64,000 nucleotides of DNA. Source: Hyphomicrobiaceae bacterium. Lineage in GTDB: Bacteria; Pseudomonadota; Alphaproteobacteria; Rhizobiales; Hyphomicrobiaceae. A program made the position numbers and the translations under genes. The stretch is from the NCBI GenBank assembly GCA_040080145.1, contig JBEBJA010000069.1, forward strand, positions 1,620-65,619, in the 5' to 3' direction. Below, one piece after another: positions 9,079 to 41,333 of the stretch. Numbering within the stretch: the first letter of the stretch is position 1; every line of letters starts with the position of its first letter. The notes under the pieces were generated by a model. That model was given only the letters and a program-made list of their open reading frames with translations, was not told where the DNA came from and did not search any database.

Positions 9079-10572
<1,494 letters not shown>

Positions 10573-17228: not shown

Positions 17229-17588
17229 ATGCGTACCGTCTTGATGGCAACAGCACTCCTTGCATTCACCTTCGCGACGCCTGCAGCCGCAGCCGACGTG
17301 AACGGGACGTGGAAGCGCCCGAATGGCGATACGGTTGAAGTCTCGGGCTGTGGCGGGGGGCTGTGCGCCAGGATTACGGGTGGTGCCAAGAAGGGCATGG
17401 AAATGTTCCACGGCATGTCAAAGGCCGGCGGTACCAAGTGGAAGGGTGCAAAAATGAAACATCCCGACATGCCCGGCTTCATGACCTTCAATGGCACAGT
17501 CACCCACAGCGGTGACAAGCTCGAAGTCAAAGGTTGCGCCATTGGTGAATCGATGTGCGATGCCGAGACCTGGTCGCGTGGAAAATAA
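17229..17588 (+). CDS. DUF2147-like secreted protein (paralog)
   Basis: Signal peptide, then GTWKRPNGDTVEVSGCGGGLCARI. GGAGGAAG lies upstream of the ATG at 17229. Confidence 0.7.
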   Translation: MRTVLMATALLAFTFATPAAAADVNGTWKRPNGDTVEVSGCGGGLCARITGGAKKGMEMFHGMSKAGGTKWKGAKMKHPDMPGFMTFNGTVTHSGDKLEVKGCAIGESMCDAETWSRGK

Positions 17589-17682
17589 GAACCGAGTGCC
17601 GTTGGAACCGTACCCTTGGTCCGGCTCAAACGGCACTTTCGATGTCGTGCGAAACGGATCGCACCTAAGAGGGAGTGACGAC

Positions 17683-18183
17683 ATGACTGCCGCCGGCGAC
17701 TCAAATTCCAAACGTATGTCCATTATCGTAACCAAGGGCACCCTCGACTGGGCCTACCCGCCGTTCATTCTTGCAACCACTGCGGCCGCAATGGACGTCA
17801 AGGTCACGATGTTTTTTACGTTCTACGGACTGCAGCTCTTGAAGAAGAAATTAGATCTGCAGATTTCGCCGCTCGGCAAACCAGATATGGCAATGCCGAT
17901 GATGGGCATGCACATGAAGATGCCCAACATGCTGGCGATGCTGCCCGGCGTGAATGCTGCCTCGACCACAATGATGAAGAACTTGATCGCGAAGAAGGGC
18001 GTGGCTTCGATCCCTGATCTGCGCGATGCTGCCATCGAGGGCGACGTCGAGATGATCGGCTGCCAGATGACCCTTGACCTGTTTGAGTTCAGCAAGGACG
18101 ATCTGATCCCGGGCGTCAAACTCGCCGGCGCCGCAACCTACATGGAAAACGCACTCAAGTCGGATATCAATCTCTATATCTGA
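17683..18183 (+). CDS. DsrE/DsrF-like family protein (COG2210-type)
   Basis: MSIIVTKGTLDWAYPPFILATTAAAMDVKVTMFFTFYGL, a Met-rich insert, then IGCQMTLDLF and AGAATYME. AGAGGGAG lies upstream of the ATG at 17683. Confidence 0.75.
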   Translation: MTAAGDSNSKRMSIIVTKGTLDWAYPPFILATTAAAMDVKVTMFFTFYGLQLLKKKLDLQISPLGKPDMAMPMMGMHMKMPNMLAMLPGVNAASTTMMKNLIAKKGVASIPDLRDAAIEGDVEMIGCQMTLDLFEFSKDDLIPGVKLAGAATYMENALKSDINLYI

Positions 18184-18261: not shown

Positions 18262-19725
18262 TCAACCGCGCGCAAGTCCCTTGCTCTGCAGTTCCGCCAG
18301 ATACTTGGCCCAGTGAGCGTCCTTGTCGCGACCAAGGTCATGAAGGTATGACCACGTGTACAGGCCCGTATCGTGGCCGTCATCGAACACGATTTTCGTC
18401 GCGTACTTGCCGACCGGCTTGAGGTCTTTGATCTTGACGTTCCGCTTCCCCGGCACGGTGACACGTTGCTCAGCCGAATGTCCCTGGACCTCAGCCGACG
18501 GGCTCATAACCCGCAGCATCTCAGCGGGAATATCGTATGAGAACCCGTCCTTGAACGTGATGTTGAGATTGTCGCGCGCAGGCGAAACCTTGATGAGGGG
18601 AATGTCCATGCCCTTTGCGCCGAGGATTTCGCCCCACGCCCTAGCAGCGATCTCTTTGTAGATTTGCGCTTGCGGGCTGTCGGGTGCAGTCGCGACAATC
18701 GGCAATCCTGAATCGGATTTTTCCCGGATGGACATGTGCAGCGGAATTTCGCCAAGGAAAGTCAGGCCAAGTTTTTCGGCTTCCCGTTCCGCACCGCCAT
18801 GTCCGAAAATTTCCGAACGGTCACCGCACGTCGGGCACAGGAAGTAACTCATGTTTTCGATGAGCCCGAGAACTGGCACGTCAACCTTGCGGAACATGTT
18901 GAGCCCTTTGCGGGCATCAATGAGCGCCAGATCCTGCGGCGTCGAGACGATGATCGCGCCCGACAAGGGAGCCTGCTGCGCCATGGTGAGCTGCACATCG
19001 CCCGTGCCCGGAGGCATGTCGATCACCAGCACGTCGAGTTCGCCGTCGCGGTCCCACGCAACGTCATAAAGCATTTGCTGAAGCGCCTGCACGACCATCG
19101 GTCCGCGCCAGACCACAGGAGTCGCCTCGTCAACGAGGAACCCCATCGACATGACCCGGATCCCGAACGCCGTGAACGGAATCAGTTTCGACTGGTCTTC
19201 GGTCGCCAGTGGCATCTCTCCGGCCAAGCCGAGAAGCCTGGGCTGCGACGGACCATAAATATCCGCGTCGAAAATCCCCACCCTCAGCCCCATCGCCCGG
19301 AACCCGAGTGCCAGATTGACGGCGGTGGTCGACTTGCCAACGCCGCCCTTGCCACTCGCCACAGCGACCAGATGCTTGATGCCGGGAAGCCCGGCAACTT
19401 GGCTGGAGCCTCGTTCACCCTTCGCCATCGCAGCCGACGGCTGACTGGCCGGAGTTGATTTGCGGTTCTCCCCCGCCGGTGCCTCTGCCGTCAAAACGGC
19501 ATTGACGGATGCGACGTCATCCAATTCGTTGACGACAGCTTCGGCTGCCTGGCGCAAGGGCTCGAGAGCTTCGGCCCGGTCGGCTGGCACGGTAATCGCG
19601 AAATAAACCCGGCCCTCCTTTATGATGACTTCCGAAACAAGGCCAAGTTCGACGACGTTCTGTGAGCCGTCAGGGCCTTTGATTTTGCGAAGCTGGTCGA
19701 GCACCTGATCCTTTGTGACACTCAT
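18262..19725 (-). CDS. apbC: Fe-S cluster carrier ATPase, DUF59-Mrp/ApbC/NBP35-DUF971 three-domain (HCF101-like) architecture
   Basis: N-terminus VLDQLRKIKGPDG..VVELGLV is DUF59-like. Followed by the deviant Walker A VASGKGGVGKST and a CPTC motif. The C-terminal 100 aa (ITFKDGFSYDIPAEMLRV.SPSAEVQGH...VFDDGHDTGLYTW.YL) is DUF971-like. Start at the ATG at 19725. Confidence 0.85.
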   Translation of the reverse strand: MSVTKDQVLDQLRKIKGPDGSQNVVELGLVSEVIIKEGRVYFAITVPADRAEALEPLRQAAEAVVNELDDVASVNAVLTAEAPAGENRKSTPASQPSAAMAKGERGSSQVAGLPGIKHLVAVASGKGGVGKSTTAVNLALGFRAMGLRVGIFDADIYGPSQPRLLGLAGEMPLATEDQSKLIPFTAFGIRVMSMGFLVDEATPVVWRGPMVVQALQQMLYDVAWDRDGELDVLVIDMPPGTGDVQLTMAQQAPLSGAIIVSTPQDLALIDARKGLNMFRKVDVPVLGLIENMSYFLCPTCGDRSEIFGHGGAEREAEKLGLTFLGEIPLHMSIREKSDSGLPIVATAPDSPQAQIYKEIAARAWGEILGAKGMDIPLIKVSPARDNLNITFKDGFSYDIPAEMLRVMSPSAEVQGHSAEQRVTVPGKRNVKIKDLKPVGKYATKIVFDDGHDTGLYTWSYLHDLGRDKDAHWAKYLAELQSKGLARG

Positions 19726-19822
19726 TCGGTTTGTTCCTTTTGATGGGTCGTCGCGTTCGCTCGTGCGGCTCAGGGGAAAGCCGCGATTGGGTCCAGCAGT
19801 CTGATGGTTGGGTTCGGCAGCG

Positions 19823-20467
19823 TTAGTCGATGGCCACTGCAGCAAGTTTTGCAAGAGCGTCGGCCTCGCGCGTGGCAGCGGCCATGATGAGGCGGCGCGT
19901 ATTGTCTGGAAGGTTCAAAGCAAGGGCGGCGGCATGCCCTTTTGGCGACATCTTGCGAAGCGTCTTGCCCACGATGTCGATCATCTTGGCTTCGTCGTAG
20001 GCGCTATACTTGGCCAGAAAGTCTTCGAAATAGTGCTCGACGAACACCACATCGACGACGTTCTCAAGCGCTTGGGATTCGCGATGCTTCTTGAGTTGCT
20101 CCTTTCGGATCAGCATTCCAGCATGTGCGACTTCATCCTGATTGTATCCGTTGGCCAACAAGATCTCACCCAGCAGCTTGGCATGGTGTTCACGGCACGC
20201 GCGGCGCCAGTCATTGTATCCATTGCGGCCCTCAGGGTAATTCGAGCGCGCCACATCGAACCGGCGTAGATGCTGGGCGCGGGCGGCAAGCCGCAGCAAT
20301 TCGGACGCCTCTGGGTACATGACGGCAAGCCGCGCCGTCATGCGTTCGGCATATACAATTTCATACGGCCGCAGTTGCCCGTCAATCTCGATAGACCGTG
20401 GATCACCCGCGTTGGCCAGATCAATCGCGGCCATCGAAGACTCAAATCTCGCAGTGCTTGGCGTCAT
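19823..20467 (-). CDS. DUF4202-family protein
   Basis: The RAQHLRRFDVARSNYPEGRNGYNDWRRACREHHA...LENVVDVVFVEHYFEDF pattern matches my memory of DUF4202. Confidence 0.65.
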   Translation of the reverse strand: MTPSTARFESSMAAIDLANAGDPRSIEIDGQLRPYEIVYAERMTARLAVMYPEASELLRLAARAQHLRRFDVARSNYPEGRNGYNDWRRACREHHAKLLGEILLANGYNQDEVAHAGMLIRKEQLKKHRESQALENVVDVVFVEHYFEDFLAKYSAYDEAKMIDIVGKTLRKMSPKGHAAALALNLPDNTRRLIMAAATREADALAKLAAVAID

Positions 20468-28926: not shown

Positions 28927-29259
28927 TCAGACGCAGCCGGTTGGCTTGGGCAATCCAGCGATCTTGCAAGCCTGTTTGGCCGGGCCGTAAGGGAACAGCG
29001 TATAGAGATATTCGTTGCTGCTTTTGTCGGGCCCCATCGTCTTGGCGAGCGCTTTTGTGAGCACGCGGATCGCAGGAGCGACCTGATATTCTTCGTAGTA
29101 CGACCGCAAGAAGTTCACCACTTCCCAGCGTTCGTCATTCATTTCGAGATCTTCGCTCTGAGCGATTTGGAGCGCGAGTTCCGAATTCCATTGGCTGAGG
29201 TCGGTCAGATAGCCTTCCTCGTCGGCTTCGATTTCGCTTCCGTTGTATTGGTAGCCCAT
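28927..29259 (-). CDS. dsrC: DsrC, sulfur-carrier / heterodisulfide protein
   Basis: The C-terminus AKQACKIAGLPKPTGCV carries both conserved Cys. Start at the ATG at 29259, preceded by GAAGGGAA. Confidence 0.95.
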   Translation of the reverse strand: MGYQYNGSEIEADEEGYLTDLSQWNSELALQIAQSEDLEMNDERWEVVNFLRSYYEEYQVAPAIRVLTKALAKTMGPDKSSNEYLYTLFPYGPAKQACKIAGLPKPTGCV

Positions 29260-29303
29260 CAGATGTTCCCTTCTGTTTGATTGCGTCCGGCCGGCTAGAA
29301 TTT

Positions 29304-30669: not shown

Positions 30670-31785
30670 CTAGAAACGGACATGCGCCGACATGTTCATG
30701 GTGTGGCGGGCACCGACCCATGTATCGAGATGGTGCTTGGTGAAGGCGAGACCCGTTTTCTCGAAGAAGCGCGGCCAGCCGATCCGGTCGATCCACTCGC
30801 CCATGCGCTCCCAGTGCTTCGCGTCCTCTTTGTAGGCGTAGAGGATCTTGCGCACGATATCTTCCACCTCGGGCCAGCGCGGCGGATTGTTGGGCAGGTT
30901 GGCAACCACCAGCTTGTGGAACGTCGGCTTCGAGCGGGCATTCGAATGCTTGCCGCCAACCCAGATGGCCAGTTTCGTCGATTCAGCGCTGTTGATCTGC
31001 ATCGGTGGACATGGCGGATAACAGGCACCGCAGCACACGCACTTTTTCTCATCGACTTCCAGCGACGGCTTGCCGTTGACCATAGCAGGGCGGATAGCCG
31101 CCACTGGACAACGCGCGACCACCGAGGGTCGCTCGCAAACATTGCCCACCCGGTCATGGTCGATCTTGGGAGGCTTCGTGTACTGGACGTTGATGGAGAT
31201 GTCGCCTTGGCCGCCGCAATTGATCTGACAGCACGACGTCGTGATGCGGACGCGCGTCGGCATGTCTTCCTGAATGAATTCCTTGTGCAACATATCCATC
31301 AGGCTTTTGACCACGCCCGAGGCGTCGGTGCCTGGGATATCGCAATGCAACCATCCTTGAGTATGCGAAATCATCGACACCGAGTTACCAGTTCCGCCAA
31401 CCGGGAACCCTTCTTCGGTCAGCGCCTTGATAAGTGCGGGAACCTTGTCAAAGGCTGCGACCATGAATTCGATGTTGGAGCGCGTGGTAAATCGCACATG
31501 CCCTTCGCCGTGTTTGTCGGCTATGTCGCAAAGCTTGCGGATCGTATAGACGTCCATCTGCCGCTGCGTGCCGGCGCGAACCGTAAAGATTTCATCGCCG
31601 CTCTTGGCGACATGGCGCAGCACGCCTGGACGCGGCCGCTCATGCCAAGCCCAGTTCCCGTAGTTCTTACGCATGATCGGGTGCATGTACTGCAGCGGAT
31701 CAGGAACGCCGGATTCAATTGGCTTGCGCGGCTTGGGAGGTGCGGCTGGTTTTGCAGGCGTAAGGCTCGCGGTGGTTTCAGTCAT
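30670..31785 (-). CDS. dsrB: DsrB, sulfite reductase beta subunit (reverse-acting type by context)
   Basis: Full-length DsrB-like sequence with ferredoxin-insert Cys clusters (CVCCGACYPPCP). Confidence 0.95.
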   Translation of the reverse strand: MTETTASLTPAKPAAPPKPRKPIESGVPDPLQYMHPIMRKNYGNWAWHERPRPGVLRHVAKSGDEIFTVRAGTQRQMDVYTIRKLCDIADKHGEGHVRFTTRSNIEFMVAAFDKVPALIKALTEEGFPVGGTGNSVSMISHTQGWLHCDIPGTDASGVVKSLMDMLHKEFIQEDMPTRVRITTSCCQINCGGQGDISINVQYTKPPKIDHDRVGNVCERPSVVARCPVAAIRPAMVNGKPSLEVDEKKCVCCGACYPPCPPMQINSAESTKLAIWVGGKHSNARSKPTFHKLVVANLPNNPPRWPEVEDIVRKILYAYKEDAKHWERMGEWIDRIGWPRFFEKTGLAFTKHHLDTWVGARHTMNMSAHVRF

Positions 31786-31918
31786 GTGGCACTACTCGCT
31801 CTTTGATCCAAAAGCTGGTCGCCGCAACGCAGCTTCCTTGCCCGAAACTTTGCTATTGTGAGAAAGATACCGGCCCGCTGGCACCAACACCGCGAACCGG
31901 TATCGTCTCCCCCCGGAA

Positions 31919-33271
31919 CTACTCGGCAGCATCCTTTGCGCCGCCGTCTTTGCGCAACCCGCGGCGGGCAAAGTATTTCTCTGCCTCTTCTGTGAAGTCG
32001 TCCGTGCGGACATAGCTCGACGTGCGGGGGTGCTTGACCATGTTCGGGTCGGGCTCGATACCGAGCGCATCAAGGAAGGCCGGCAACCCGATACGATCCA
32101 GCGTCTCGCCGACACGTTCGTGCTCAAGTGCGTTGTCGGCAAAGAAGTCGATCACCTGACGGGCAAACGCTTTCAATTTTGCATAGTCGGCATCCGTCTC
32201 AAGCTTCATGAACGGCACAATCATTGTGCCCATGAGATCGCCCACCTTGAGCGACCGCTTGCCACCGATGAGGATCGACGCACCCTTGTCGTCTCCTGGT
32301 GCCAACGCTTTATGCATGACGTTGATACAATGCATGCAACGCACGCAGCTCTTGTTGTCGACATCCAGCGTATCGTCGTCGTTGAGACTGAGCGCGCGTG
32401 TCGGGCACATGGCGATCACGTGGTCAATCGTATACTTGCGGCCCTGCTTGGCGACGTATGCTTTAACTTCCTGCTGATCGACTTTCATGTCGTCGCGCCA
32501 CGTTCCGATCACGGCAAAGTCGGCGCGATGGATGGCGTTGACGCAGTCGTTGGGACAGCCAGAGAACTTGAATTTGAACTTGTAGGGCAATGCAGGCCGG
32601 TGAATTTCGCCGACGTTATCGTTGAGGATCGTGCGCAAAGCGCGCGCCTCGTCATAGTTCGACATTTCGCAGCGGGCATGTCCAACGCAGCTCATGCTGG
32701 TGCGCAGAGCAGGGCCAGCCCCGCCAAGGTCGAAGCCGATCTCGTTCAGTTCATCAAAGGCTTTCTGGCATCCAGCAGTCGTGGTGCCCTGCAGCATGAT
32801 ATCGCCCGACTGGCCGTGCAACGCGATCAGGCCCGAACCATGACGCTCCCAGATGTCGCAAATATTGCGCAAAACCTCGGTGTTGTAGTGAAAGCCAGGA
32901 GGCGGCATCACGCGAAGAGTGTGGAACTCCTTGGAAGCTGGAAACTTGTCGGCAACTTCGGAAAAACGCGGAATGATTCCGCCGCCATAGCCAAACACCG
33001 AAACGGTGCCGCCCTTCCAGAATCCAAGCCGCTCGGTGTAGGAGTGCTCGAGCTGACCAAGCAAATCGTTCATCATCGGCGCGTATTGTTTGTCGTCGCT
33101 GTCGCGAAGCCGCTTCAGCCCGGTAACGAAGCTCGGCCATGGACCACCCTCAAGCTGGTCAAGTCGCGGAGTCGCATGCTTGTTAGCGGAGGCACATCCG
33201 CAACCTGAGCCACAACCACCCTCCTTGCCGCCGTCTTTCCCTGCATCCTCGGTCTTGGACTTATCTGCCAT
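31919..33271 (-). CDS. dsrA: DsrA, sulfite reductase alpha subunit, with a Cys/Gly-rich N-terminal extension
   Basis: KHATPRLDQLEGGPWPSFVTG and siroheme/Fe-S Cys motifs. No alternative in-frame ATG/GTG/TTG lies between the ATG at 33271 and the conserved KHATP region. Confidence 0.95.
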   Translation of the reverse strand: MADKSKTEDAGKDGGKEGGCGSGCGCASANKHATPRLDQLEGGPWPSFVTGLKRLRDSDDKQYAPMMNDLLGQLEHSYTERLGFWKGGTVSVFGYGGGIIPRFSEVADKFPASKEFHTLRVMPPPGFHYNTEVLRNICDIWERHGSGLIALHGQSGDIMLQGTTTAGCQKAFDELNEIGFDLGGAGPALRTSMSCVGHARCEMSNYDEARALRTILNDNVGEIHRPALPYKFKFKFSGCPNDCVNAIHRADFAVIGTWRDDMKVDQQEVKAYVAKQGRKYTIDHVIAMCPTRALSLNDDDTLDVDNKSCVRCMHCINVMHKALAPGDDKGASILIGGKRSLKVGDLMGTMIVPFMKLETDADYAKLKAFARQVIDFFADNALEHERVGETLDRIGLPAFLDALGIEPDPNMVKHPRTSSYVRTDDFTEEAEKYFARRGLRKDGGAKDAAE

Positions 33272-33448
33272 TGTCTTGCTCCGTCCCTAGGCTTCCTGGC
33301 CACGCATCATCCGCTCGCGCGGGAATGGTTCTTTGTCCACGATCTGGCGGTCAGACAATTTTTCGGGCGTGAGGCGAGCTGCAAAGCCCTCACCTCAGCC
33401 CCTGCCCAAATGTCTGAGCGCACGTGGTTGACGAGATCATATCTATAA

Positions 33449-33466
33449 ATTCGAATATTGCAATAA
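33449..33466. promoter_or_regulatory. AT-rich partial palindrome ATTCGAATATTGCAATAA in the dsrA / tauD-like divergent control region
   Basis: Read directly. Shares ATTCGAATAT with 41449-41458 and fits ATT-N2-AATATT-N2-AAT, as does the cbb palindrome. Confidence 0.4.
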
Positions 33467-33567
33467 GAACTCAGCGGGGCGATAGTGTCGCTGGGAACGG
33501 TGGTGCCGAAAGCACGAATGCGGTGTGGAAAAAGCGGCCTGCCCGGTACGGCTAGCGGAGACGGTCA

Positions 33568-34530
33568 TTGAAACGGCGCGACGAAAATAGTGCTCTAAGG
33601 AACGGTGGTCCAAGAGGTGGCGGGCCGGTATCCCCGTTCGAACTTGGCAACGATGATTATTATCGTCAGTGGCGCGAGAAAAAGCTATCGGCATTTCCAA
33701 GGTCGGTAGCCGAATTGAAGGTTACCCTCGCCGATCTTGGTCAGCCTTCCGTTGCTGAACGTCAACGCATTATAGATGCCATCAAGCGCGCCAACATGGC
33801 GATCTATGTCAGTCAACCGCCTGCAAACGACGCCGATGGCCGCAAGCTTCGGCAAGACCTTACGGCCTTTTTGGCTGGCTTCGGACTGGCGAGCGTTGAA
33901 AAACACCGCTCAGCCGAGAGCGATGGGTTCGTTGCCATTGAGGTTTCGCAAACACCAGTCAAACGTGGGTTCATTCCTTATACGTCAAAGCCGCTGAGCT
34001 GGCACACCGACGGTTACTACAACCCACCGCAGGCCGCTATCCGGGCCATGTTGCTCCATTGCGCTCACGCGGCCACGTCAGGCGGCGAGAATGCGCTTCT
34101 TGATCCAGAGATTGCCTACATCCGGCTTCGCGACGCCAACCCGAAATGGGTGGAGGCACTGATGCGGCCTGACGCGATGACGATCCCGGTATCCATTGAG
34201 GAAGACGGCAGCGAGCGTCCGGTCAGCACCGGCCCCGTATTCGCGGTGGATGCTTCAGACGGCAGTCTGCTCATGCGCTACACCGCGCGGGGCCGCAATA
34301 TCCACTGGCGGGACGACGAGGATACGCGCGCTGCAACGGCCTTCCTGGAACGGGTGTTGAAAGACGAACAGGAGCCACTCGTCCTGCGGGCGCAGTTGGA
34401 ACCAGGAGAAGGATTGATCTGCAATAACGTGTTGCACACCAGAACAGCATTCGAAGATACCGGAACACCCCGCCGCCTTATCCTGCGTGCGCGGTTTGCC
34501 ACAAGAATTGCAACCCACGAACCCGAGTGA
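33568..34530 (+). CDS. TauD/TfdA-family Fe(II)/2-oxoglutarate dioxygenase-like protein
   Basis: HxD in LSWHTDGYY, distal His in NNVLHTRTAF, Arg in RRLILRARF. TTG start is uncertain. Confidence 0.7.
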   Translation: MKRRDENSALRNGGPRGGGPVSPFELGNDDYYRQWREKKLSAFPRSVAELKVTLADLGQPSVAERQRIIDAIKRANMAIYVSQPPANDADGRKLRQDLTAFLAGFGLASVEKHRSAESDGFVAIEVSQTPVKRGFIPYTSKPLSWHTDGYYNPPQAAIRAMLLHCAHAATSGGENALLDPEIAYIRLRDANPKWVEALMRPDAMTIPVSIEEDGSERPVSTGPVFAVDASDGSLLMRYTARGRNIHWRDDEDTRAATAFLERVLKDEQEPLVLRAQLEPGEGLICNNVLHTRTAFEDTGTPRRLILRARFATRIATHEPE

Positions 34531-34534
34531 GCCC

Positions 34535-34774
34535 ATGTCACAACGAGTTGAGCCTGTGCACGGCATGGTTGCCGTTAGCGACCTCATCATCAAGCATCCC
34601 GAGGTGGCGACGTTCGACGAGCTGCTCGTCATCGTCGCAATGGCGGCCAAGGACGGTGCCCGCTTTCTGAATTACGACATCAAGCCCGATTACCGCGATA
34701 CGCCAAAGCGCTGGGAAATGCTGCTTGAGAACGCGTTCAACCTTGGTCCGCGCTACCTTGGAGAGAGGCAGTGA
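34535..34774 (+). CDS. hypothetical small protein (79 aa)
   Basis: Starts 5 nt after the dioxygenase stop. Codon third positions look gene-like. No family recognised. Confidence 0.5.
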   Translation: MSQRVEPVHGMVAVSDLIIKHPEVATFDELLVIVAMAAKDGARFLNYDIKPDYRDTPKRWEMLLENAFNLGPRYLGERQ

Positions 34775-35022
34775 GCGACCCCGTCGTCACCGATATCGAG
34801 CGTATCGAAGCGCCGTTCCGGCGTCAGTTAGTGCTTCAAGACGTTGCTCACGAAAGCGGGCTGAAGATGCTGCGTATCCGCATCCGTGAAGGCACCCGCT
34901 TTACGATCCTTGACGTCGATGCACCGGTCGCGCGCCAATGGGGTGAGCTGATGCTCGCGTGGGCGCAAACGAACGAACAAACGAACCCGCAAGCCACCAT
35001 CATACCCAAGGACGTTCCATGA
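34771..35022 (+). CDS. hypothetical small protein (83 aa)
   Basis: GTGA overlap with the preceding ORF suggests translational coupling. No family recognised. Confidence 0.5.
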   Translation: MSDPVVTDIERIEAPFRRQLVLQDVAHESGLKMLRIRIREGTRFTILDVDAPVARQWGELMLAWAQTNEQTNPQATIIPKDVP

Positions 35023-35101
35023 CCGGCACCCTTGCGGCTTTGTGTTCAGCCAGTGCTCCAAGTGCGAGGCCAGCGCATGCCGGTTATGGGACCAGGATGT
35101 G

Positions 35102-36550
35102 ATGGAGCAGCTTCCGATCAGCCTCAACCTCAAAGGCAAAAAGGTCGTCGTGACCGGTGGCGGTTCGGTCGCGGCCCGAAAGTGCGAGGCGGCCCTCCGC
35201 GCCGGTGGTAACGTATTGGTCGTGACGCCGCGTTTAGGACCCGAGTTCCATGCGCTGGCGTTGCATCGAGACTTCCGCCACCGGGCGGGTCGTCCCGAGA
35301 GCCACGATTTCGACGATGCCGTCTTGGTGTTTGGGGCCAGTGAGAATGAAATAGAGGATAATCGCGTCCACGAATTGGCTAAGTCCAGGCGCGCGCTGGT
35401 CAACATCCCAGACCGGCCCGAACTTTGCGATTTCTCCATGCCTTCAATTCTCGACCGCTCGCCGTTGTTGATTGCCATCTCATCGGCTGGTTACTCACCC
35501 TTGCTGACACGGTTGATAAAACAGCGCCTTGAAAGCACCATTCCAGCCGCCTTCGGCAATCTTGCCAGGTTCTTCGGGGGCCTTCGCGAACATGTTGTTG
35601 CCCACATCCCTGATAATCGTAAGCGCCGTTATTTCCTTGAAAAAATGCTCGATGGTCCCGTCGCTGATCTGGTGCTTGCTGGCGATGAACCACGGGCGAA
35701 GGCGCTGCTCGACAGCGAACTTGCAGCTCTCGATACCCCTGAGCAAGGACCCGGATTGGGCGAAGTCTATCTCGTCGGTGGCGGTCCAGGCGACCCCGAT
35801 CTGCTGACGTTTCGCGCCCTGCGCCTCCTGCAGCGCGCTGATGTCGTGGTCTATGATCGCCTGATCGGTAGCCCCATCCTCGAACTGGTGCGCCGCGATG
35901 CCGTCCGCATTTATGTCGGCAAGATGAAGGACAAGCATGAGCTCTCCCAGGTCGAGATCAGCAAGCTGCTTGTGAAACTCGCGCGTGAAGGCAAGCGCGT
36001 GTTGCGCCTGAAGGGTGGAGATCCTTTCATATTCGGTCGCGGCGGCGAGGAAATCGAAATGCTGGCCGGCGAGGGAATCCCGTTTCAAGTGGTGCCTGGA
36101 ATTACGGCGGCCTCGGGATGCTCCAGTTATGCAGGCATTCCACTCACCCACCGCGATCATGCCCAGTCGTGTCTTTTCGTCACCGGTCACTCCAAAGATG
36201 GCCAGCTCATGCTCGATTGGAAGGCCGTGCTACAGCCCCGGCAGACGGTGGCAATTTATATGGGATTGGCGATGATGCCCGGCCTCGTGCGGGATTTTCT
36301 AGCGCATGGGGCCGATCCCGACCTGCCGGTCGCCGTCGTTGATAACGGGACTCGGCCCAACCAGACGGTCATTTCGGGAACCATCGCGTCGATTGCGCAA
36401 AAAGTCGCCGAGGCCGGCATCAAGGGACCGGCCATGATTCTGATCGGTTCGGTTGTGCGGCTTCGCGAAAAGCTCGCATGGTTCAAACCGGAAACGGGAA
36501 CGCCCTCGACAACGGCTGGCATAGCCCAGTCCGTGGCGCGGATAGATTAA
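35102..36550 (+). CDS. cysG: siroheme synthase (precorrin-2 dehydrogenase/ferrochelatase + uroporphyrinogen-III C-methyltransferase)
   Basis: N-terminal Rossmann KKVVVTGGGSVAARK. SUMT domain VYLVGGGPGDPDLLTFRALRLLQRADVVVYD. Start at the ATG at 35102. Confidence 0.9.
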   Translation: MEQLPISLNLKGKKVVVTGGGSVAARKCEAALRAGGNVLVVTPRLGPEFHALALHRDFRHRAGRPESHDFDDAVLVFGASENEIEDNRVHELAKSRRALVNIPDRPELCDFSMPSILDRSPLLIAISSAGYSPLLTRLIKQRLESTIPAAFGNLARFFGGLREHVVAHIPDNRKRRYFLEKMLDGPVADLVLAGDEPRAKALLDSELAALDTPEQGPGLGEVYLVGGGPGDPDLLTFRALRLLQRADVVVYDRLIGSPILELVRRDAVRIYVGKMKDKHELSQVEISKLLVKLAREGKRVLRLKGGDPFIFGRGGEEIEMLAGEGIPFQVVPGITAASGCSSYAGIPLTHRDHAQSCLFVTGHSKDGQLMLDWKAVLQPRQTVAIYMGLAMMPGLVRDFLAHGADPDLPVAVVDNGTRPNQTVISGTIASIAQKVAEAGIKGPAMILIGSVVRLREKLAWFKPETGTPSTTAGIAQSVARID

Positions 36551-36572
36551 ACCTCACAGAAGGAAGGAAAGC

Positions 36573-36911
36573 ATGTCACTTGAATTGAATGGACAGACGA
36601 TCGAAACAACGGCCAGCGGCTATATGGTCAACCTTGAGGATTGGAACGAGGAGTTGGCCCACGCGATCGCCGCGTTGGACGACATTACGCTCACGGAAGG
36701 GCACTGGGACGTCATCAACTACCTGCGCGATCAGTACATCAACAACAATCAGGTGCAGCCCAACACGCGCACCATCGTCAAAGCCATGAGCGAAAAATGG
36801 GGACGCGAAATCGACTCCAAGGATTTGTATGATCTCTTCCCAACTGACCCGTCAAAACAGGGCGGACGCATCGCCGGGTTACCCGAAAGCCGCCGCAAGG
36901 GTGGCTACTGA
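36573..36911 (+). CDS. DsrC/TusE-family protein lacking both conserved cysteines
   Basis: Aligns along its full length with the DsrC at 28927-29259. Its C-terminus is QGGRIAGLPESRRKGGY, versus QACKIAGLPKPTGCV in DsrC. GAAGGAAGGAAA RBS. Confidence 0.85.
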   Translation: MSLELNGQTIETTASGYMVNLEDWNEELAHAIAALDDITLTEGHWDVINYLRDQYINNNQVQPNTRTIVKAMSEKWGREIDSKDLYDLFPTDPSKQGGRIAGLPESRRKGGY

Positions 36912-36934
36912 CAACGCTGACCAAGGAGGCGCTC

Positions 36935-37273
36935 ATGGTTCCGCGCGAATTCATCTGCGACGCTTGTGGGTTGCCTCCGCACGCCGTTGAGGACGCGGCT
37001 TTGGCCGGCCAGGAGCGGTCTGCCGGTCAAGAACTTCCTGCTAAGTGGGTACGTCGCACCTTCGGACGCCGGAAGTTTATTCTCTGCGACTGTTGCGGCA
37101 GCACCCACCATTTCAAGGGTGGTCTATCGACGTATCTGCAGGAGACACTTGGGCTGGGTCCGTACGCAGTATGTGACTTCGCCGCCGATGCAGCGCCAGG
37201 CAGCGGTCTGCATCGCTTGAGGATCAAACAGCCAGACCCAACTGACGACCCACCAGAGGGAGCAGGTTCGTGA
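36935..37273 (+). CDS. hypothetical 4-Cys (zinc-ribbon-like) small protein, paralog A
   Basis: AAGGAGG RBS. CDAC ... LCDCCG...F.GGLS.YL motif shared with the next ORF. Confidence 0.6.
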   Translation: MVPREFICDACGLPPHAVEDAALAGQERSAGQELPAKWVRRTFGRRKFILCDCCGSTHHFKGGLSTYLQETLGLGPYAVCDFAADAAPGSGLHRLRIKQPDPTDDPPEGAGS

Positions 37274-37584
37274 AAGTTTCGTGCGACAGTTGCCAGACGG
37301 AATGCGATGTCACGGTCAGTGGACCAACGCTGCTCAGGCGAGCGCTCCCCAGGGGCTGGCGTCCGCGCCGCATTGATGGCCGGGTCTATGTTCTTTGCGA
37401 TATTTGTGGAAACTTACGACAGTTCGTTGGCGGGCTTTCGCCCTATCTCGCCGCACGGCTCAACCTTCCATCCAATGTCGAAATAGAATTTCCCGAATAC
37501 ACCGAGCTTCCAGACGCTTGGCTTGCGCGGGGAAAAATAGCGAAAGCAAATCCGGCTGCCACGAAGCTCGAGTCGGGCGAGTAA
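37270..37584 (+). CDS. hypothetical 4-Cys (zinc-ribbon-like) small protein, paralog B
   Basis: GTG start overlaps the upstream stop, with a GAGGGAG RBS. CDSC ... LCDICG...F.GGLS.YL. Confidence 0.55.
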   Translation: MKVSCDSCQTECDVTVSGPTLLRRALPRGWRPRRIDGRVYVLCDICGNLRQFVGGLSPYLAARLNLPSNVEIEFPEYTELPDAWLARGKIAKANPAATKLESGE

Positions 37585-37634
37585 TTCGCGTACAGCCGGG
37601 CGGCGAGTTCACAGCAGAGGGGGAGGGGGGAGGC

Positions 37635-39092
37635 ATGTCCCAGTCGATATCCTTAAGCCGGCTTGCGCGTCTGGTTGGGTTGCCAAGATCGACGCTGCAG
37701 CGGATGGCTCAAGCAGGTGAGTTCGCAACTTTCGATGGTCACGTAGAACTCGCGGAGGTAATGCGTGCCTTTCCTGGCGCACGGTTCGACAACGACAGTG
37801 AGATCCGCCGCGTCGAAGAAATCAAGAATGATGCGCTCAACAAGTCTGCGGAAAGACCAGAGTTGCCCGATGCCGCCGTGCTGATGGGACGCCTGCAGCA
37901 GATGGGGCGAGACTATGCCGGCCTCGCGGCACGGGTAAGGCATTATGCGCTGGTCCACCGGTGGCTCGTCGAAAAAGTCAAAGATTTGACAGCGGACGGC
38001 AAAATCGAGCCGGTGGTTGGCGATGGGCTGCTGCGCTGGTTCAAGCATGAACTCGAAGCAACGCCGCGCGAGGATGCGCGCTGGCAGCAACTTGTTACAC
38101 AGGAGCGCCTCATGCGCGTGATGTCTGCCCAGGTGACGGTCTTGCCGCGCGGGACGACTTTCGAGGCCCAGGGAAATGAAACGCTGCTTGATGCCGGTCT
38201 TCGCGCAGGATTATCGTTCGCCTACGGCTGTAGCAACGGCAACTGCGGCGACTGCAAGGCGCGGGTGATCGAAGGCGAGGTACTCAAGGTCCGCCCCCAC
38301 GATTTTGCGCTGAACGAGGCACAGAAGGCCAAGGGAATCACCCTGATGTGCTCGTATGCAGCCGTGGGCGACGTCGTTCTCGAAGCCGCGATGGCTGGAA
38401 CCCGCGATATTCCCCAGCAAACCATCATGGCCCGCGTCCGGGCAATCGAACCGCTCGGTAAGCACGTAACCGCCGTGCATCTGCTGACGCCGCGCAGTGA
38501 TCGTCTGCAGTTTTTGGCCGGCCAGCGATTGCGTGTAACGATTGGTGGTCAAGCTGCCGAGGTTTCGATTGCAAGCTGCCCGTGTGAGGAGCGCCGCATC
38601 GAGGTGCATGTGCGCGAAACAGACACCTGGTCGCCGTTTGCGAGTGCAGGCCTAAAACAAAATGACGAGGTCGAAATCGTAGGGCCATTCGGCGAATTCG
38701 TGCTGAACGAGGCGTCGGCGCGCCCGTTGGTTCTGATTGCGCAAGGCGAGGGGTACGCGCCCATCAAGAGCCTCGTGCAACATGCCCTGTCGCTCGATCT
38801 CGCACCCAACATTGCGCTCTATTGGCTCGCGGACGCCGGCGGGCATTACCAGGAAAACTTGCCGCGATCCTATGCTGCAGCATTGGACAACTTCGACTAT
38901 ATCCCGTTGACCATCAACGGCGATCACAAGGCAGCCCTGGCAGCAATTCTCGCCCGGCCGGACCTCGTATCGAGCGACGTCTATGCGGCCGGTGATGCCG
39001 CGTTCATCGAAACCATGCGGTCCGCATGGTTGACTGCCGGACTATCGCGGGACAACCTGCGCGTCGAGGCGTTCGGCAGCATCCCGGACTGA
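37635..39092 (+). CDS. fusion protein: N-terminal HTH (MerR/excisionase-like) + plant-type [2Fe-2S] ferredoxin domain + FNR-like domain with degenerate cofactor motifs
   Basis: HTH: ISLSRLARLVGLPRSTLQRMAQAGE. [2Fe-2S]: CSNGNCGDC...LMC. FNR-like: GQRLRV...VSIAS...GPFGEF...LIAQGEGYAPI. GGGAGGGGGGAGG lies upstream of the ATG at 37635. Confidence 0.7.
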   Translation: MSQSISLSRLARLVGLPRSTLQRMAQAGEFATFDGHVELAEVMRAFPGARFDNDSEIRRVEEIKNDALNKSAERPELPDAAVLMGRLQQMGRDYAGLAARVRHYALVHRWLVEKVKDLTADGKIEPVVGDGLLRWFKHELEATPREDARWQQLVTQERLMRVMSAQVTVLPRGTTFEAQGNETLLDAGLRAGLSFAYGCSNGNCGDCKARVIEGEVLKVRPHDFALNEAQKAKGITLMCSYAAVGDVVLEAAMAGTRDIPQQTIMARVRAIEPLGKHVTAVHLLTPRSDRLQFLAGQRLRVTIGGQAAEVSIASCPCEERRIEVHVRETDTWSPFASAGLKQNDEVEIVGPFGEFVLNEASARPLVLIAQGEGYAPIKSLVQHALSLDLAPNIALYWLADAGGHYQENLPRSYAAALDNFDYIPLTINGDHKAALAAILARPDLVSSDVYAAGDAAFIETMRSAWLTAGLSRDNLRVEAFGSIPD

Positions 39093-39128: not shown

Positions 39129-39530
39129 TCAGTTTTTCGAACCACGCTTCATAACGTCGGGGCAGAAGTAGGTCTGCAAAATCGCGACAATGTCGGCAAC
39201 GGGCGTGTTGGCCAACGAATAGTGCACGAAGTTGCCCCGCCGGTCAGCCTTCACAAGGCCACCTTGACGCAACCTGATGAGGTGTTGCGAAACGAGGCTT
39301 TGGCGAGCATCGATCGCTTCGCAGATCTCCGTCACCGATTTGGCACCGTCCATCAAGAAGCAGAGAATCATCAGCCGGTGTCCGCTGCCCATTGTGCGCA
39401 GGAACTCCGCAGCTACCTCTGCCGAATCCTTTGTTGCTGCCAATGCGTTCACATCAATCTGAGTCGATGACGCTACCGGCTTTGAGGAATCGCGCCGCTT
39501 TGCGTCAAGCCGCGTCCGAGTGTTGGCCAT
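39129..39530 (-). CDS. ArsR/SmtB-family transcriptional regulator, two-Cys SqrR/BigR-like
   Basis: HRLMILCFL...SVTEICEAIDARQSLVSQHLIRLRQGGLV...YFC. The Cys residues in ILC and YFC are 66 residues apart. Start at the ATG at 39530. Confidence 0.8.
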   Translation of the reverse strand: MANTRTRLDAKRRDSSKPVASSTQIDVNALAATKDSAEVAAEFLRTMGSGHRLMILCFLMDGAKSVTEICEAIDARQSLVSQHLIRLRQGGLVKADRRGNFVHYSLANTPVADIVAILQTYFCPDVMKRGSKN

Positions 39531-39695
39531 GGTTCTCTCAATTGCATCAGGATAAACCGTTGAACGGAATACCTTCCATGCTATCGAAGATAGCTCATGC
39601 CGTACTTTGCTGCAATGCAATAAATTAGCACACCAGCTCTGCCTGCAGCGGTTAGCTCGGGTCAGATCCGGTCAGTCACTGATTTCGTAGGCGCC

Positions 39696-39728
39696 AAACC
39701 CGCAAAAGACGGTTGCTTTTGCGGGTTT
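39696..39728 (-). terminator. 13-bp stem-loop downstream of tusA
   Basis: AAACCCGCAAAAG pairs with CTTTTGCGGGTTT. Lies about 55 nt after the tusA stop. Confidence 0.5.
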
Positions 39729-39782
39729 GAATGGTCAGGGCACAGCGAACGCCGCTTCATGGGAAGGGCATGCGCAAGTGGT

Positions 39783-40010
39783 TCAGCCACCGCGTTTTAT
39801 CAAGAACCGGTACACTCCAGCATCTTCAGATTGCTCCACGAGCGTATTGCCCGTGGTCCTGCAAAACGCCTGGAAGTCAGCGACCGATCCAGGATCGGTC
39901 GCGAGAATTTCAAGTGTACCGCCGGGCGCGACTTCCGTGATAGCCTTCTTGGCCTTGAGAATAGGAATCGGGCAATTCGCGCCCTTAGCGTCGAGTGTCT
40001 TGTCAGCCAT
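39783..40010 (-). CDS. tusA: TusA/SirA-family sulfurtransferase (YeeD-like)
   Basis: 75 aa with the LDAKGANCPIPILKAKKA CPxP motif. Downstream of yeeE. Confidence 0.9.
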   Translation of the reverse strand: MADKTLDAKGANCPIPILKAKKAITEVAPGGTLEILATDPGSVADFQAFCRTTGNTLVEQSEDAGVYRFLIKRGG

Positions 40011-40208
40011 TGTTTATCTCCCCGTGTGCGTTGATCACTATTTCATTTTGGGTCGGCACGTCTATGGTCCTCTCCGTGATCGGAGTCTGTCGGCACCTCC
40101 CTCATATTGACGTTTGCAAACAGACGAAGGTGGCCCGTCAAGGCCGGTGAACAGCGTAATCCGATCATGCCCCGAGCGGGCGGACACGCCGGCGTCAGAC
40201 TTCGTTCG

Positions 40209-41333
40209 TCAGACTTCGTTCATTAGGATCGTTTCCATCTTCTTCATGCCCAGCACACCGCCGGCAACAATCGCAGCAAATGTCAGGAACGAACCAATCG
40301 CCAAAGTAGAAACGCCGGTAACAGCTTGGCCGATTGTGCATCCAAGCGCCATCACGCCACCAATGCCCATGAGGGCTGCACCAAACAGAACGCGCTTGGT
40401 ATCGGCCACATTGGAGAACGTCGTGAACTTGAAGCGCCCCATTGACTTCGCGGCGATGAAAGCACCCAAAATAGCGCCAAACACGGACGCGACTCCGAAT
40501 CCTGGAACCATCGTTGCTGTAAATCGCTGCAGCCATTCAAGAGAGTCTGCTGTTGGCCGCACGTACGTCAGGGAGATTGGCGTCATCGGCTTGCCGCCCA
40601 TTTCATCATAGGCCAACCCGGTGAGCACCCAGCCCGCAATCGCACATAACGCGATACCGCCGCCCGCGAGGATGTGGATAGGCGAGTTTCGAAAGTTTGC
40701 ATCTTTAAAACAATAGATTGCGGCTGCTCCCGCAATCAAAACGGTTATGACCAGATTGCCCGTGTCTGGTCCGAGTTTCGTGACCACGCCCACGAGTTCG
40801 CCGATGCTCTGAGTTGAAACTTTCAGGCTACTCAGGTTAACGCTCGTCACTTGGTCAAACCAATTGCGCAGCGGTCCGATGATGCCGCCGATGGCCATGT
40901 AGGCGAACAGTCCCATAACGATGAGCGTTACCAAAGATCGAAGATCGCCCGCGCCGACGCGGGTTAGATTTCGACTGGCGCAGCCGCCCGCGAAAACCAT
41001 CCCAAACCCAAAGATCAGACCGCCGACGATGTTGCCAAACCAGTTTAATGTGGGGCTCAGATACATGGATTTTGCAAGCGGAACCACGCCTGCCCAGTTC
41101 AGCAGCTGAGCGCCCACGAGCGTTAGCGCGGCCGCCAGTATCCACGAACGAAAGCGGCGATAGTCTCCGAACGACATGATGTCGGAGATCGACCCCATAG
41201 TGCAGAAATTGGTCCGGAACACGATGTATCCGAATAGTGTCCCGATAATCAATCCGCCAACCGCAAGCCAAACATCTGGATTGCTTTGTATCAAATCCCT
41301 CAGTGCACCCATGTCACCCTCCAGCCTTACCAC
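40209..41333 (-). CDS. yeeE: full-length YeeE/YedE-family transporter (thiosulfate/sulfur-compound uptake type)
   Basis: 374 aa with about 9 transmembrane helices. Three Cys-containing motifs (FCTMGS, GGCASRNL, LGCTIGQ). Followed by a tusA-like gene. Confidence 0.85.
   Translation of the reverse strand: MVRLEGDMGALRDLIQSNPDVWLAVGGLIIGTLFGYIVFRTNFCTMGSISDIMSFGDYRRFRSWILAAALTLVGAQLLNWAGVVPLAKSMYLSPTLNWFGNIVGGLIFGFGMVFAGGCASRNLTRVGAGDLRSLVTLIVMGLFAYMAIGGIIGPLRNWFDQVTSVNLSSLKVSTQSIGELVGVVTKLGPDTGNLVITVLIAGAAAIYCFKDANFRNSPIHILAGGGIALCAIAGWVLTGLAYDEMGGKPMTPISLTYVRPTADSLEWLQRFTATMVPGFGVASVFGAILGAFIAAKSMGRFKFTTFSNVADTKRVLFGAALMGIGGVMALGCTIGQAVTGVSTLAIGSFLTFAAIVAGGVLGMKKMETILMNEV

Follow-up and report, generated by a model that had tools for sequence, protein, structure and literature searches.

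What do the genes on the far side of the dsrA promoter contribute to bacteria that oxidise sulfur through reverse dissimilatory sulfite reductase (rDsr)? In many environmentally dominant bacteria sulfur is oxidised in the cytoplasm chiefly by this pathway, whose textbook gene list, dsrABEFHCMKLJOPNRS, stems from an anaerobic phototroph. The window analysed here, 64,000 nucleotides (nt) from a metagenome-assembled genome (MAG) of the Hyphomicrobiaceae, carries oxidative-type dsrAB on the minus strand (30670-33271, with dsrA at 31919-33271). Divergent from dsrA, eight plus-strand open reading frames (ORFs), numbered g1 to g8, are packed head-to-tail at 33568-39092. In order they encode a TauD-family protein (g1, dsrQ), a very small protein (g2), a DUF6967 protein (g3), CysG (g4), a DsrC paralogue without cysteines (g5), two four-cysteine mini-proteins (g6 and g7) and a fusion protein with ferredoxin and FNR-like domains (g8). 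An earlier note on this DNA took the eight as one undescribed dsr-linked module with a possible role in maturation, redox sensing or transcriptional regulation. We find that the block is made of two separable conserved modules, g1-g5 and g6-g8, which are contiguous in this Hyphomicrobiaceae lineage. The first, the dsrQ module, is found with oxidative dsrAB in most proteobacterial sulfur oxidisers that are not phototrophs and shares the dsrA promoter region.

The evidence comes from gene neighbourhoods sampled in two directions. The forward sample comprised the 80 dsrA loci closest to the DsrA of the window, taken from one-genome-per-species contigs of Alpha-, Beta- and Gammaproteobacteria and of a few MAGs labelled Myxococcales or Bacteroidota. 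The window DsrA is 64-92% identical to the DsrA proteins of these loci, and related loci found by other routes also match. Each locus, referred to below by its L number, was searched with all eight proteins, and the ORFs upstream of dsrA were clustered. In 63 of the 75 informative loci, those with more than 1.5 kilobases (kb) upstream of dsrA, g1 and/or g2 is divergent from dsrA. Over all 80 loci a g1 homologue is divergent from dsrA in 55, and the upstream region holds g2 in 45, DUF6967 in 26, cysG in 22 and a DsrC-like gene in 28.

The reverse sample consisted of 80 metagenome loci found through g2 alone, with a profile built from a 12-sequence subset. A divergent dsrA was present on all 47 contigs that reach at least 2.6 kb upstream, so g2 is dsr-exclusive as far as sampled, and dsrQ lay between g2 and dsrA in 58 of the 61 loci with at least 1 kb upstream. 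These counts define the composition of module 1, its conservation and its exclusive linkage to dsrA. The check that the earlier note had proposed, whether the orthologues lie next to dsrA in other genomes, is thus strongly positive for g1-g5. Its idea of a dsr-linked module holds for these genes across classes and for g6-g8 only within Hyphomicrobiaceae.

The same loci speak against a single eight-gene unit, as first proposed. In none of the 80 genome loci do g6-g8 lie upstream of dsrA, and elsewhere they form a block of their own. Module 2 follows g5 in the same direction in the window, L007 and L092, always with gaps of no more than 80 nt, and this arrangement is what would be expected of one dedicated operon with a single function. 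In L094, however, module 2 still comes after g5 but is inverted and convergent; in L006, L168-170, L172 and L174 it sits at the other end of the dsr cluster, by dsrN, DUF4202 and Mrp; and in L005/L008 some 100 kb of the same contig separate it from dsrA. The genes of g1-g5, in turn, occur without g6-g8 throughout the 80 genome loci. Because g6-g8 occur separately from g1-g5, the block is composite rather than one operon, and a single dedicated function for all eight genes is very improbable.

In the window itself the arrangement is as tight as had been described. The ORF listing confirms eight same-strand, packed ORFs opposite dsrA, and the junctions, including the GTGA stop/start overlaps at 34771 and 37270, are as the note gave them. 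The intergenic gaps measure 4, 19-79, 22, 23 and 50 nt, and a purine-rich, Shine-Dalgarno-like stretch precedes all eight starts. No convincing terminator was found inside the block, where 10 terminator-like matches, all weak, compare with 6.6 ± 2.5 in shuffled sequence; Rfam and tRNA scans of the window found nothing. All eight ORFs are, from their sequences, genuine genes with homologues, and in this lineage g1-g8 are probably co-transcribed. Pfam and NCBIfam searches and alignments uphold the TauD/TfdA, CysG, Cys-less DsrC and helix-turn-helix (HTH)-[2Fe-2S]-FNR-like assignments and the paralogy of the four-cysteine pair. The two small ORFs had been called family-less. This is wrong for g3, which belongs to DUF6967; it is right for g2 in that no family model covers it, and wrong in that g2 is a conserved family of its own. 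The count of five products in eight without assignable function was therefore overstated.

Module 1 comes in two architectures. Type A, found in Alphaproteobacteria, Woeseiaceae and others, runs dsrQ-g2-DUF6967-cysG, with g5 added in Hyphomicrobiaceae; these four genes are present, for instance, in L025, from Maritimibacter fusiformis HY14, without counting g5. Type B, of Beta- and Gammaproteobacteria, runs dsrQ-g2, a protein of 237 amino acids (aa), a Cas6/Cmx6 homologue and g5, often with a rhodanese; here the 237-aa protein and the Cas6/Cmx6 homologue stand in for DUF6967 and cysG. The 237-aa protein belongs to no family and precedes the Cas6/Cmx6 gene in L066 (7572-8285). We considered it as a carrier of DUF6967 and rejected this (profile-profile probability 0.06%).

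Several observations belong beside these architectures. The Cas6/Cmx6 gene of L066 (6870-7562, minus strand; PF09559, E = 1e-61; TIGR02807, 132 bits against a cutoff of 99) has counterparts in 26 other Beta/Gamma loci, adjoining the DsrC paralogue. We call it an orphan, although no search for a CRISPR array was made; a literature search for Cas6 together with dsrC found nothing relevant. A few kilobases past the type B module lie two more 2-oxoglutarate (2OG)-Fe(II) oxygenase genes (PF13640, one with a PKHD C-terminal domain; L066 3472-5357), which recur in other Beta/Gamma loci as clusters 8 and 11. In L088, L089, L093, L094, L120, L128, L131 and L143 an extra DsrC-like gene, 30-40% identical to g5 and absent from the window, separates DUF6967 from cysG and runs on the other strand.

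The gene next to dsrA, g1 (33568-34530, plus strand), has a history in the literature. Lenk et al. 2012 gave it the name dsrQ, according to Loeffler et al. 2020 (PMC7596348), where it is placed, in the passage on this gene, in most aerobic chemotrophic sulfur oxidisers. As dsrQ for the TauD-like gene and the RspA class for proteins such as g5 had already been described (in the relevant passages of PMC7596348, PMC9371685 and PMC8477390), the module is not wholly undescribed, as the earlier note had supposed. In the passages on dsrQ in this literature, which do not extend to Lenk et al. 2012 itself, the tauD-like gene is the only module 1 gene that is named, and a recent preprint on Ruegeria rDsr makes no mention of dsrQ.

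The g1 product is an Fe(II)/2OG dioxygenase by family, with a clear match to Pfam TauD (PF02668, E = 4e-22; 79.8 bits against a cutoff of 27). The HxD motif (WHTDGYYN), the distal histidine (NNVLHxR) and the downstream arginine residues are invariant in 54 orthologues. Because these residues are invariant, DsrQ is probably an active Fe/2OG oxygenase, catalytically competent and dependent on O2. Its nearest NCBIfam models are TmpA, TMLD and BBOX (at most 50 bits, against cutoffs of 268-415), and its only matches among solved structures are TmpA (E = 1e-5) and At3g21360. No taurine dioxygenase equivalog was among its NCBIfam matches at E <= 0.1, and E. coli TauD structures were unmatched at E <= 0.01. 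We infer from these comparisons that DsrQ falls outside the taurine dioxygenases proper.

This bears on the role that has been proposed for the protein. The relevant passages of PMC7596348 and PMC9371685 speculate that DsrQ releases sulfite from sulfonates, in which case it would be a sulfonate dioxygenase acting on taurine-like organosulfonates and the module an organosulfur input, or a side branch, to the sulfite pool. Membership of the TauD/TfdA superfamily with an intact HxD...H...R set fits such a role. The best matches of DsrQ are, however, enzymes with trimethylammonium substrates (TmpA, TMLD, BBOX) rather than TauD models or structures, and the module includes neither a sulfonate transporter nor a regulator. 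The genes conserved beside dsrQ encode a DsrC paralogue and tiny proteins and are not catabolic, and in the g2-anchored sample dsrQ never occurs apart from dsrA. We therefore think the sulfonate role unlikely.

Another member of the module is a relative of DsrC. The g5 protein (36573-36911, plus strand) has the DsrC fold (PF04358, E = 1e-33) and can be aligned end to end with Allochromatium vinosum DsrC, but it has other residues at both C-terminal cysteine positions. It ends ...KQGGRIAGLPESRRKGGY, compared with ...KQACRFAGLPKPTGCV in canonical DsrC, and so lacks the CysB-X10-CysA pattern; the window also encodes a canonical DsrC, ending ...TGCV (28927-29260, minus strand). The conserved tail of g5 is ...AGLPESRRKGGY, and all orthologues over three classes end in LPE[ST]xRKGGY. 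Those in Beta/Gamma loci are 57-69% identical to g5, which is thus conserved more than DsrQ.

It is with its C-terminal arm that DsrC enters the DsrAB cleft. Because g5 has replaced this arm with another invariant one, we read it as a DsrC mimic. Keeping the DsrC body and a conserved arm, it could bind at the DsrC docking site of DsrAB or of a partner, and would do so without carrying sulfur. With a DsrC fold and no cysteine in the arm, g5 falls in the RspA class of Cys-less DsrC/TusE relatives, for which the relevant part of PMC8477390 proposes a regulatory role. In Methylovirgula thiovorans a Cys-less DsrC, MHY1_00075, lies between dsrE2 and dsrQ and is likewise suggested to be regulatory in the passage of PMC9371685 that treats it.

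The remaining genes of module 1 are two small proteins and a siroheme synthase. The g2 ORF (34535-34774, plus strand; conserved core from Met11 at 34565) has no Pfam or NCBIfam match. A search of 1.84 billion representatives placed it in a family of 85 clusters (50% identity), marked by the motif D[VIL]KPxYxDTPxxWE, whose members with few exceptions stand alone and are 60-100 aa long; across module 1 loci the protein is about 65-79 aa long. No informative domain fusion was found among the 1.84 billion representatives, the two long repetitive proteins that turned up being probable artefacts. An AF2 model of g2 (pLDDT, a per-residue confidence score, 84.7) predicts a beta-alpha-alpha-beta-alpha arrangement with a conserved KPxYxDTPxxWE loop. 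Foldseek found no match to this model in the PDB at E < 1, and the g2 profile gave only chance-level matches to PDB sequences. The NCBI name of g2, 'sulfur relay protein DsrC', is to be rejected, as neither Pfam nor NCBIfam gives any similarity to DsrC/TusE; it is probably a misnomer based on position.

Translationally coupled to g2 through the GTGA overlap, g3 (34771-35022, plus strand) matches PF22295 (DUF6967) with E = 5e-27. DUF6967 follows g2 in 26 genome loci and most metagenome loci. Its profile also gave chance-level matches only against PDB sequences, and literature searches for DUF6967 or g2 found nothing. The two small proteins are not paralogues, a possibility that we rejected at a profile-profile probability of 1.2%. 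The g4 gene (35102-36550, plus strand; open from a GTG at 35042) encodes a full CysG, with NAD_binding_7, Sirohm_synth_M, CysG_dimeriser and TP_methylase all present (NF007922, 577 bits against a cutoff of 400). Its family assigns it to the synthesis of siroheme, the cofactor of DsrAB. Among genome loci of the Alpha/Woeseiaceae type, 22 have the gene at this place, as do most Alpha-type metagenome loci.

The presence of cysG raises the question of whether module 1 is a maturation set for the DsrAB cofactor. CysG would then supply siroheme, the small proteins and the Cys-less DsrC would be chaperones or placeholders in siroheme or siroamide insertion, and DsrQ would carry out an O2-dependent modification. 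The position of cysG within the module agrees with this, as do dsrN, which encodes a siroheme amidase homologue and ends the same cluster, and the retention in g5 of the DsrC body, which docks at the siroheme cleft. The Beta/Gamma module, however, has no cysG, only the 237-aa protein and Cas6/Cmx6 in its place, organisms without the module still make active rDsrAB, and we know of no Fe/2OG oxygenase in siroheme chemistry. As a reading of the module, cofactor maturation seems unlikely.

We favour a broader role, in which module 1 would tune or mature rDsrAB in oxygen-exposed cells, as a modulator or assembly factor rather than a core catalytic step. CysG would supply siroheme, DsrQ would provide an O2-dependent step, g5 would be a non-carrying mimic of DsrC, and g2 and the DUF6967 protein would be small partner proteins. 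A sharper proposal is that DsrQ, the 65-aa g2 and the GGY-tailed DsrC form an oxygen-responsive control device that acts directly on rDsrAB. The mimic would fill the DsrC docking cleft, and DsrQ would hydroxylate the mimic, g2 or DsrC/DsrAB, switching the enzyme or its expression between oxic and anoxic states. In Hyphomicrobiaceae a second layer, passing the redox state of the cell on to the same island, would be added by a flavin-less, [2Fe-2S]/NAD(P)H-sensing transcription factor (g8), a second DsrC mimic and two zinc-ribbon proteins. We think this proposal unlikely.

In the second module, g8 (37635-39092, plus strand) joins an HTH-like N-terminus, through a helical linker, to a plant-type [2Fe-2S] ferredoxin and an FNR-like domain. 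Its full-length homologues number at least 120. The ferredoxin domain is clear (Fer2, E = 2e-12), and its cysteines (Cx4Cx2C...C; C199, C204, C207 and C239) are invariant in 29 sequences. Residues 177-480 give a BenC-like alignment, and MmoC and Fre-type reductases also align, with all NCBIfam scores at or below 97 bits against cutoffs of 230-500. The motif AxGxG[FY]APIKS, a GxGxxP-like putative NAD(P)H-binding loop, is conserved. The RxYS flavin motif is not conserved; in the 29 sequences the aligned position reads AEVS, SRVP or GRYA. Just after it comes an invariant ASCPCEERR (window 38550-38600, residues about 310-325), which may be a CxC redox or metal site. The N-terminal domain is conserved in all homologues; its LSRxARLVGxxRxxLQxM...TFDG stretch resembles an excisionase/MerR-type HTH at a sub-threshold score (HTH matches are weak, E about 0.006), and a comparison of the N-terminus with the PDB gave nothing meaningful.

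Upstream of g8, g6 (36935-37273, plus strand) and g7 (37270-37584, plus strand, overlapping g6 by GTGA) encode zinc-ribbon-like paralogues (36% identity over 70 aa, E = 7e-12). Each has four invariant cysteines in CxxCG knuckles, in g7 C5, C8, C43 and C46. Orthologues of g6 occur in L005, L006, L007, L092 and L094, and g7 homologues form 47 clusters, the named ones all from Hyphomicrobiaceae or Alphaproteobacteria. The AF2 model of g7 (pLDDT 69.5) suggests four short strands with the look of a zinc ribbon; it has no PDB match at E < 1, and neither g6 nor g7 has a Pfam match.

Neither gene is in the GenBank record, whose accessions pass from MEQ1695682 (g5) to MEQ1695683 (g8); only the Logan gene calls include them. 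We considered whether g6 and g7 are spurious ORFs and rejected this on their conservation, their invariant cysteines and a bias of substitutions to the third codon position. The g7 orthologue of L007 (9221-9499) was also missed by the gene caller.

Elsewhere module 2 has the order g6-g7-DsrC2-g8; DsrC2, which the window lacks, is another Cys-less DsrC, about 123 aa long and distinct from g5. In L171 a g6-g7 pair without DsrC2 or g8 lies between sdhA/creD and sdhB (9707-10279), about 6 kb from dsrN and dsrP. Full-length g8 homologues also occur alone in housekeeping contexts, in Gallionella and Thiobacillaceae (48-50% identity) and on one more contig (53%).

An alternative reading of module 2 is an electron-transfer chain, in which an NAD(P)H:ferredoxin-type reductase would feed rubredoxin-like carriers. 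The CxxCG knuckles of g6 and g7, the invariant cluster cysteines, the retained GxGxxP-like loop and the alignment to BenC, MmoC and Fre-type reductases all accord with this. It is harder to reconcile with the loss of the RxYS motif across the family in favour of an invariant SCPCEERR, with the HTH-like N-terminus of every homologue, and with the occurrence of g8 alone in Betaproteobacteria, without g6 or g7. An electron-transfer role is on balance improbable. We consider g8 rather as a candidate sensor of redox state or NAD(P)H that binds DNA; it would have retained the [2Fe-2S] cluster and nucleotide loop but not the canonical flavin site. Its partners g6 and g7 would form a heteromeric metal-binding pair.

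Taken as a whole, the locus is best explained as two dsr-associated modules, the first a modulator or assembly set for rDsrAB and the second a sensor, g8, with g6 and g7 as its partners. This seems to us somewhat more probable than not, and several points weigh against it. What carries it at this locus is sequence comparison. The parts of module 1 are not strictly interdependent, since dsrQ is absent while g2 and g5 are kept in L068, L070, L071, L074, L084 and L087, and Rhodobacteraceae-type loci have no g5. Nor is the module essential for rDsr, since ten rDsr loci, including those of Thiomargarita, Marithrix, Sulfuricaulis and Azospirillum halopraeferens, hold no module 1 gene. The 80 genome loci are the closest relatives of the window by DsrA, and hence a biased sample. 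Co-transcription across the g5/g6 junction is deduced from a gap of only 23 nt and the lack of a terminator. The HTH of g8 comes from sub-threshold matches, and the partner roles of g2, g3, g6 and g7 are guesses because no fold or family assignment that would indicate a role was found for them.

The region shared by the two divergent transcripts and the wider neighbourhood complete the picture. The dsrA-dsrQ intergenic region (33272-33567) contains a conserved AT-rich element at about 33436-33466 (ATCATATCTATAAATTCGAATATTGCAA), which aligns in the intergenic regions of L007, L089 and L091. A sigma-70-like match on the dsrA strand (TTGCAA, 16 nt, TATGAT) overlaps it, and a related direct repeat, TTGCATATT, 16 nt apart, is present in L008, L009, L010, L096 and L097. 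The element may be a shared promoter or operator. The window from 17 to 41 kb is one sulfur-oxidation island. A gene for DsrE2 lies at 17491-18183 (plus strand). The dsr cluster is closed by dsrN, followed by a DUF4202 gene and an Mrp/NUBPL Fe-S carrier with a DUF971 fusion (18262-20467, minus strand), an arrangement also seen in L006, L168, L172 and L174. Convergent with g8, at 39129-41333 (minus strand), are genes for an ArsR-family regulator (163 aa), TusA (75 aa) and a YeeE/YedE-type sulfur transporter (374 aa).

In the majority of the 80 closest rDsr loci, then, a further conserved set lies across the dsrA promoter. At its core are dsrQ, the 65-aa protein that is dsr-exclusive as far as sampled, and the DsrC mimic with its invariant tail; CysG is the only member of the set with a known function. 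What is new here is the defined core of the dsrQ module and its two alternative architectures, the dsr-exclusive g2 family, the invariant GGY tail and the g6-g7-(DsrC2)-g8 module of Hyphomicrobiaceae. A precise definition of the set provides targets for deletion and binding experiments in cultured carriers. Module 1 could explain how an oxygen-sensitive siroheme enzyme runs in oxic habitats, and module 2 adds a widespread HTH-ferredoxin-FNR-like family as a candidate redox sensor.

How do these modules compare with known systems? A precedent for a small modulator of DsrAB is DsrD, a small allosteric activator of reductive DsrAB (PMC8794893). Like g2 it is a very small protein encoded beside dsrAB, without catalytic residues. 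The likeness is an analogy only, as the g2 model matched no DsrD-like PDB structure and DsrD belongs to reductive-type clusters.

Among oxygenases, DsrQ finds its best sequence matches in the TmpA/TMLH/BBOX branch of the TauD superfamily and shares its HxD...H facial triad, but it scores far below the family cutoffs. BBOX-type relatives carry a GBBH-like N-terminal (DUF971) domain that DsrQ lacks; in the window this domain is fused instead to the Mrp/NUBPL protein (18262-19854). The g8 protein resembles [2Fe-2S]-FNR reductases of the BenC/MmoC/Fre/AscD type in its order of Fer2 then FNR-like domain, its cluster cysteines and its putative nucleotide-binding glycine loop. It differs from them in an extra 160-aa HTH-like and helical N-terminus, an unconserved RxYS position and an invariant CPC motif.

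The g5 protein shares with RspA the DsrC fold without redox cysteines and a gene position between dsrQ and other sulfur genes. Within RspA at large it is a sharply defined subgroup, set apart by its invariant LPE[ST]xRKGGY C-terminus. The dsrQ locus itself agrees with earlier descriptions in having a TauD-family gene directly upstream of, and divergent from, oxidative dsrA. The gene holds the same position in Rhodobacteraceae/Paracoccaceae (L020-L029, 43-49% identity to g1) and in the Myxococcales MAG SURF_8 (L043, 45%), a genome discussed in PMC7596348, where the gene is called tauD/dsrQ. The difference is that g2, DUF6967, cysG and a GGY-tailed DsrC come after dsrQ here, with a second module behind them in this lineage.

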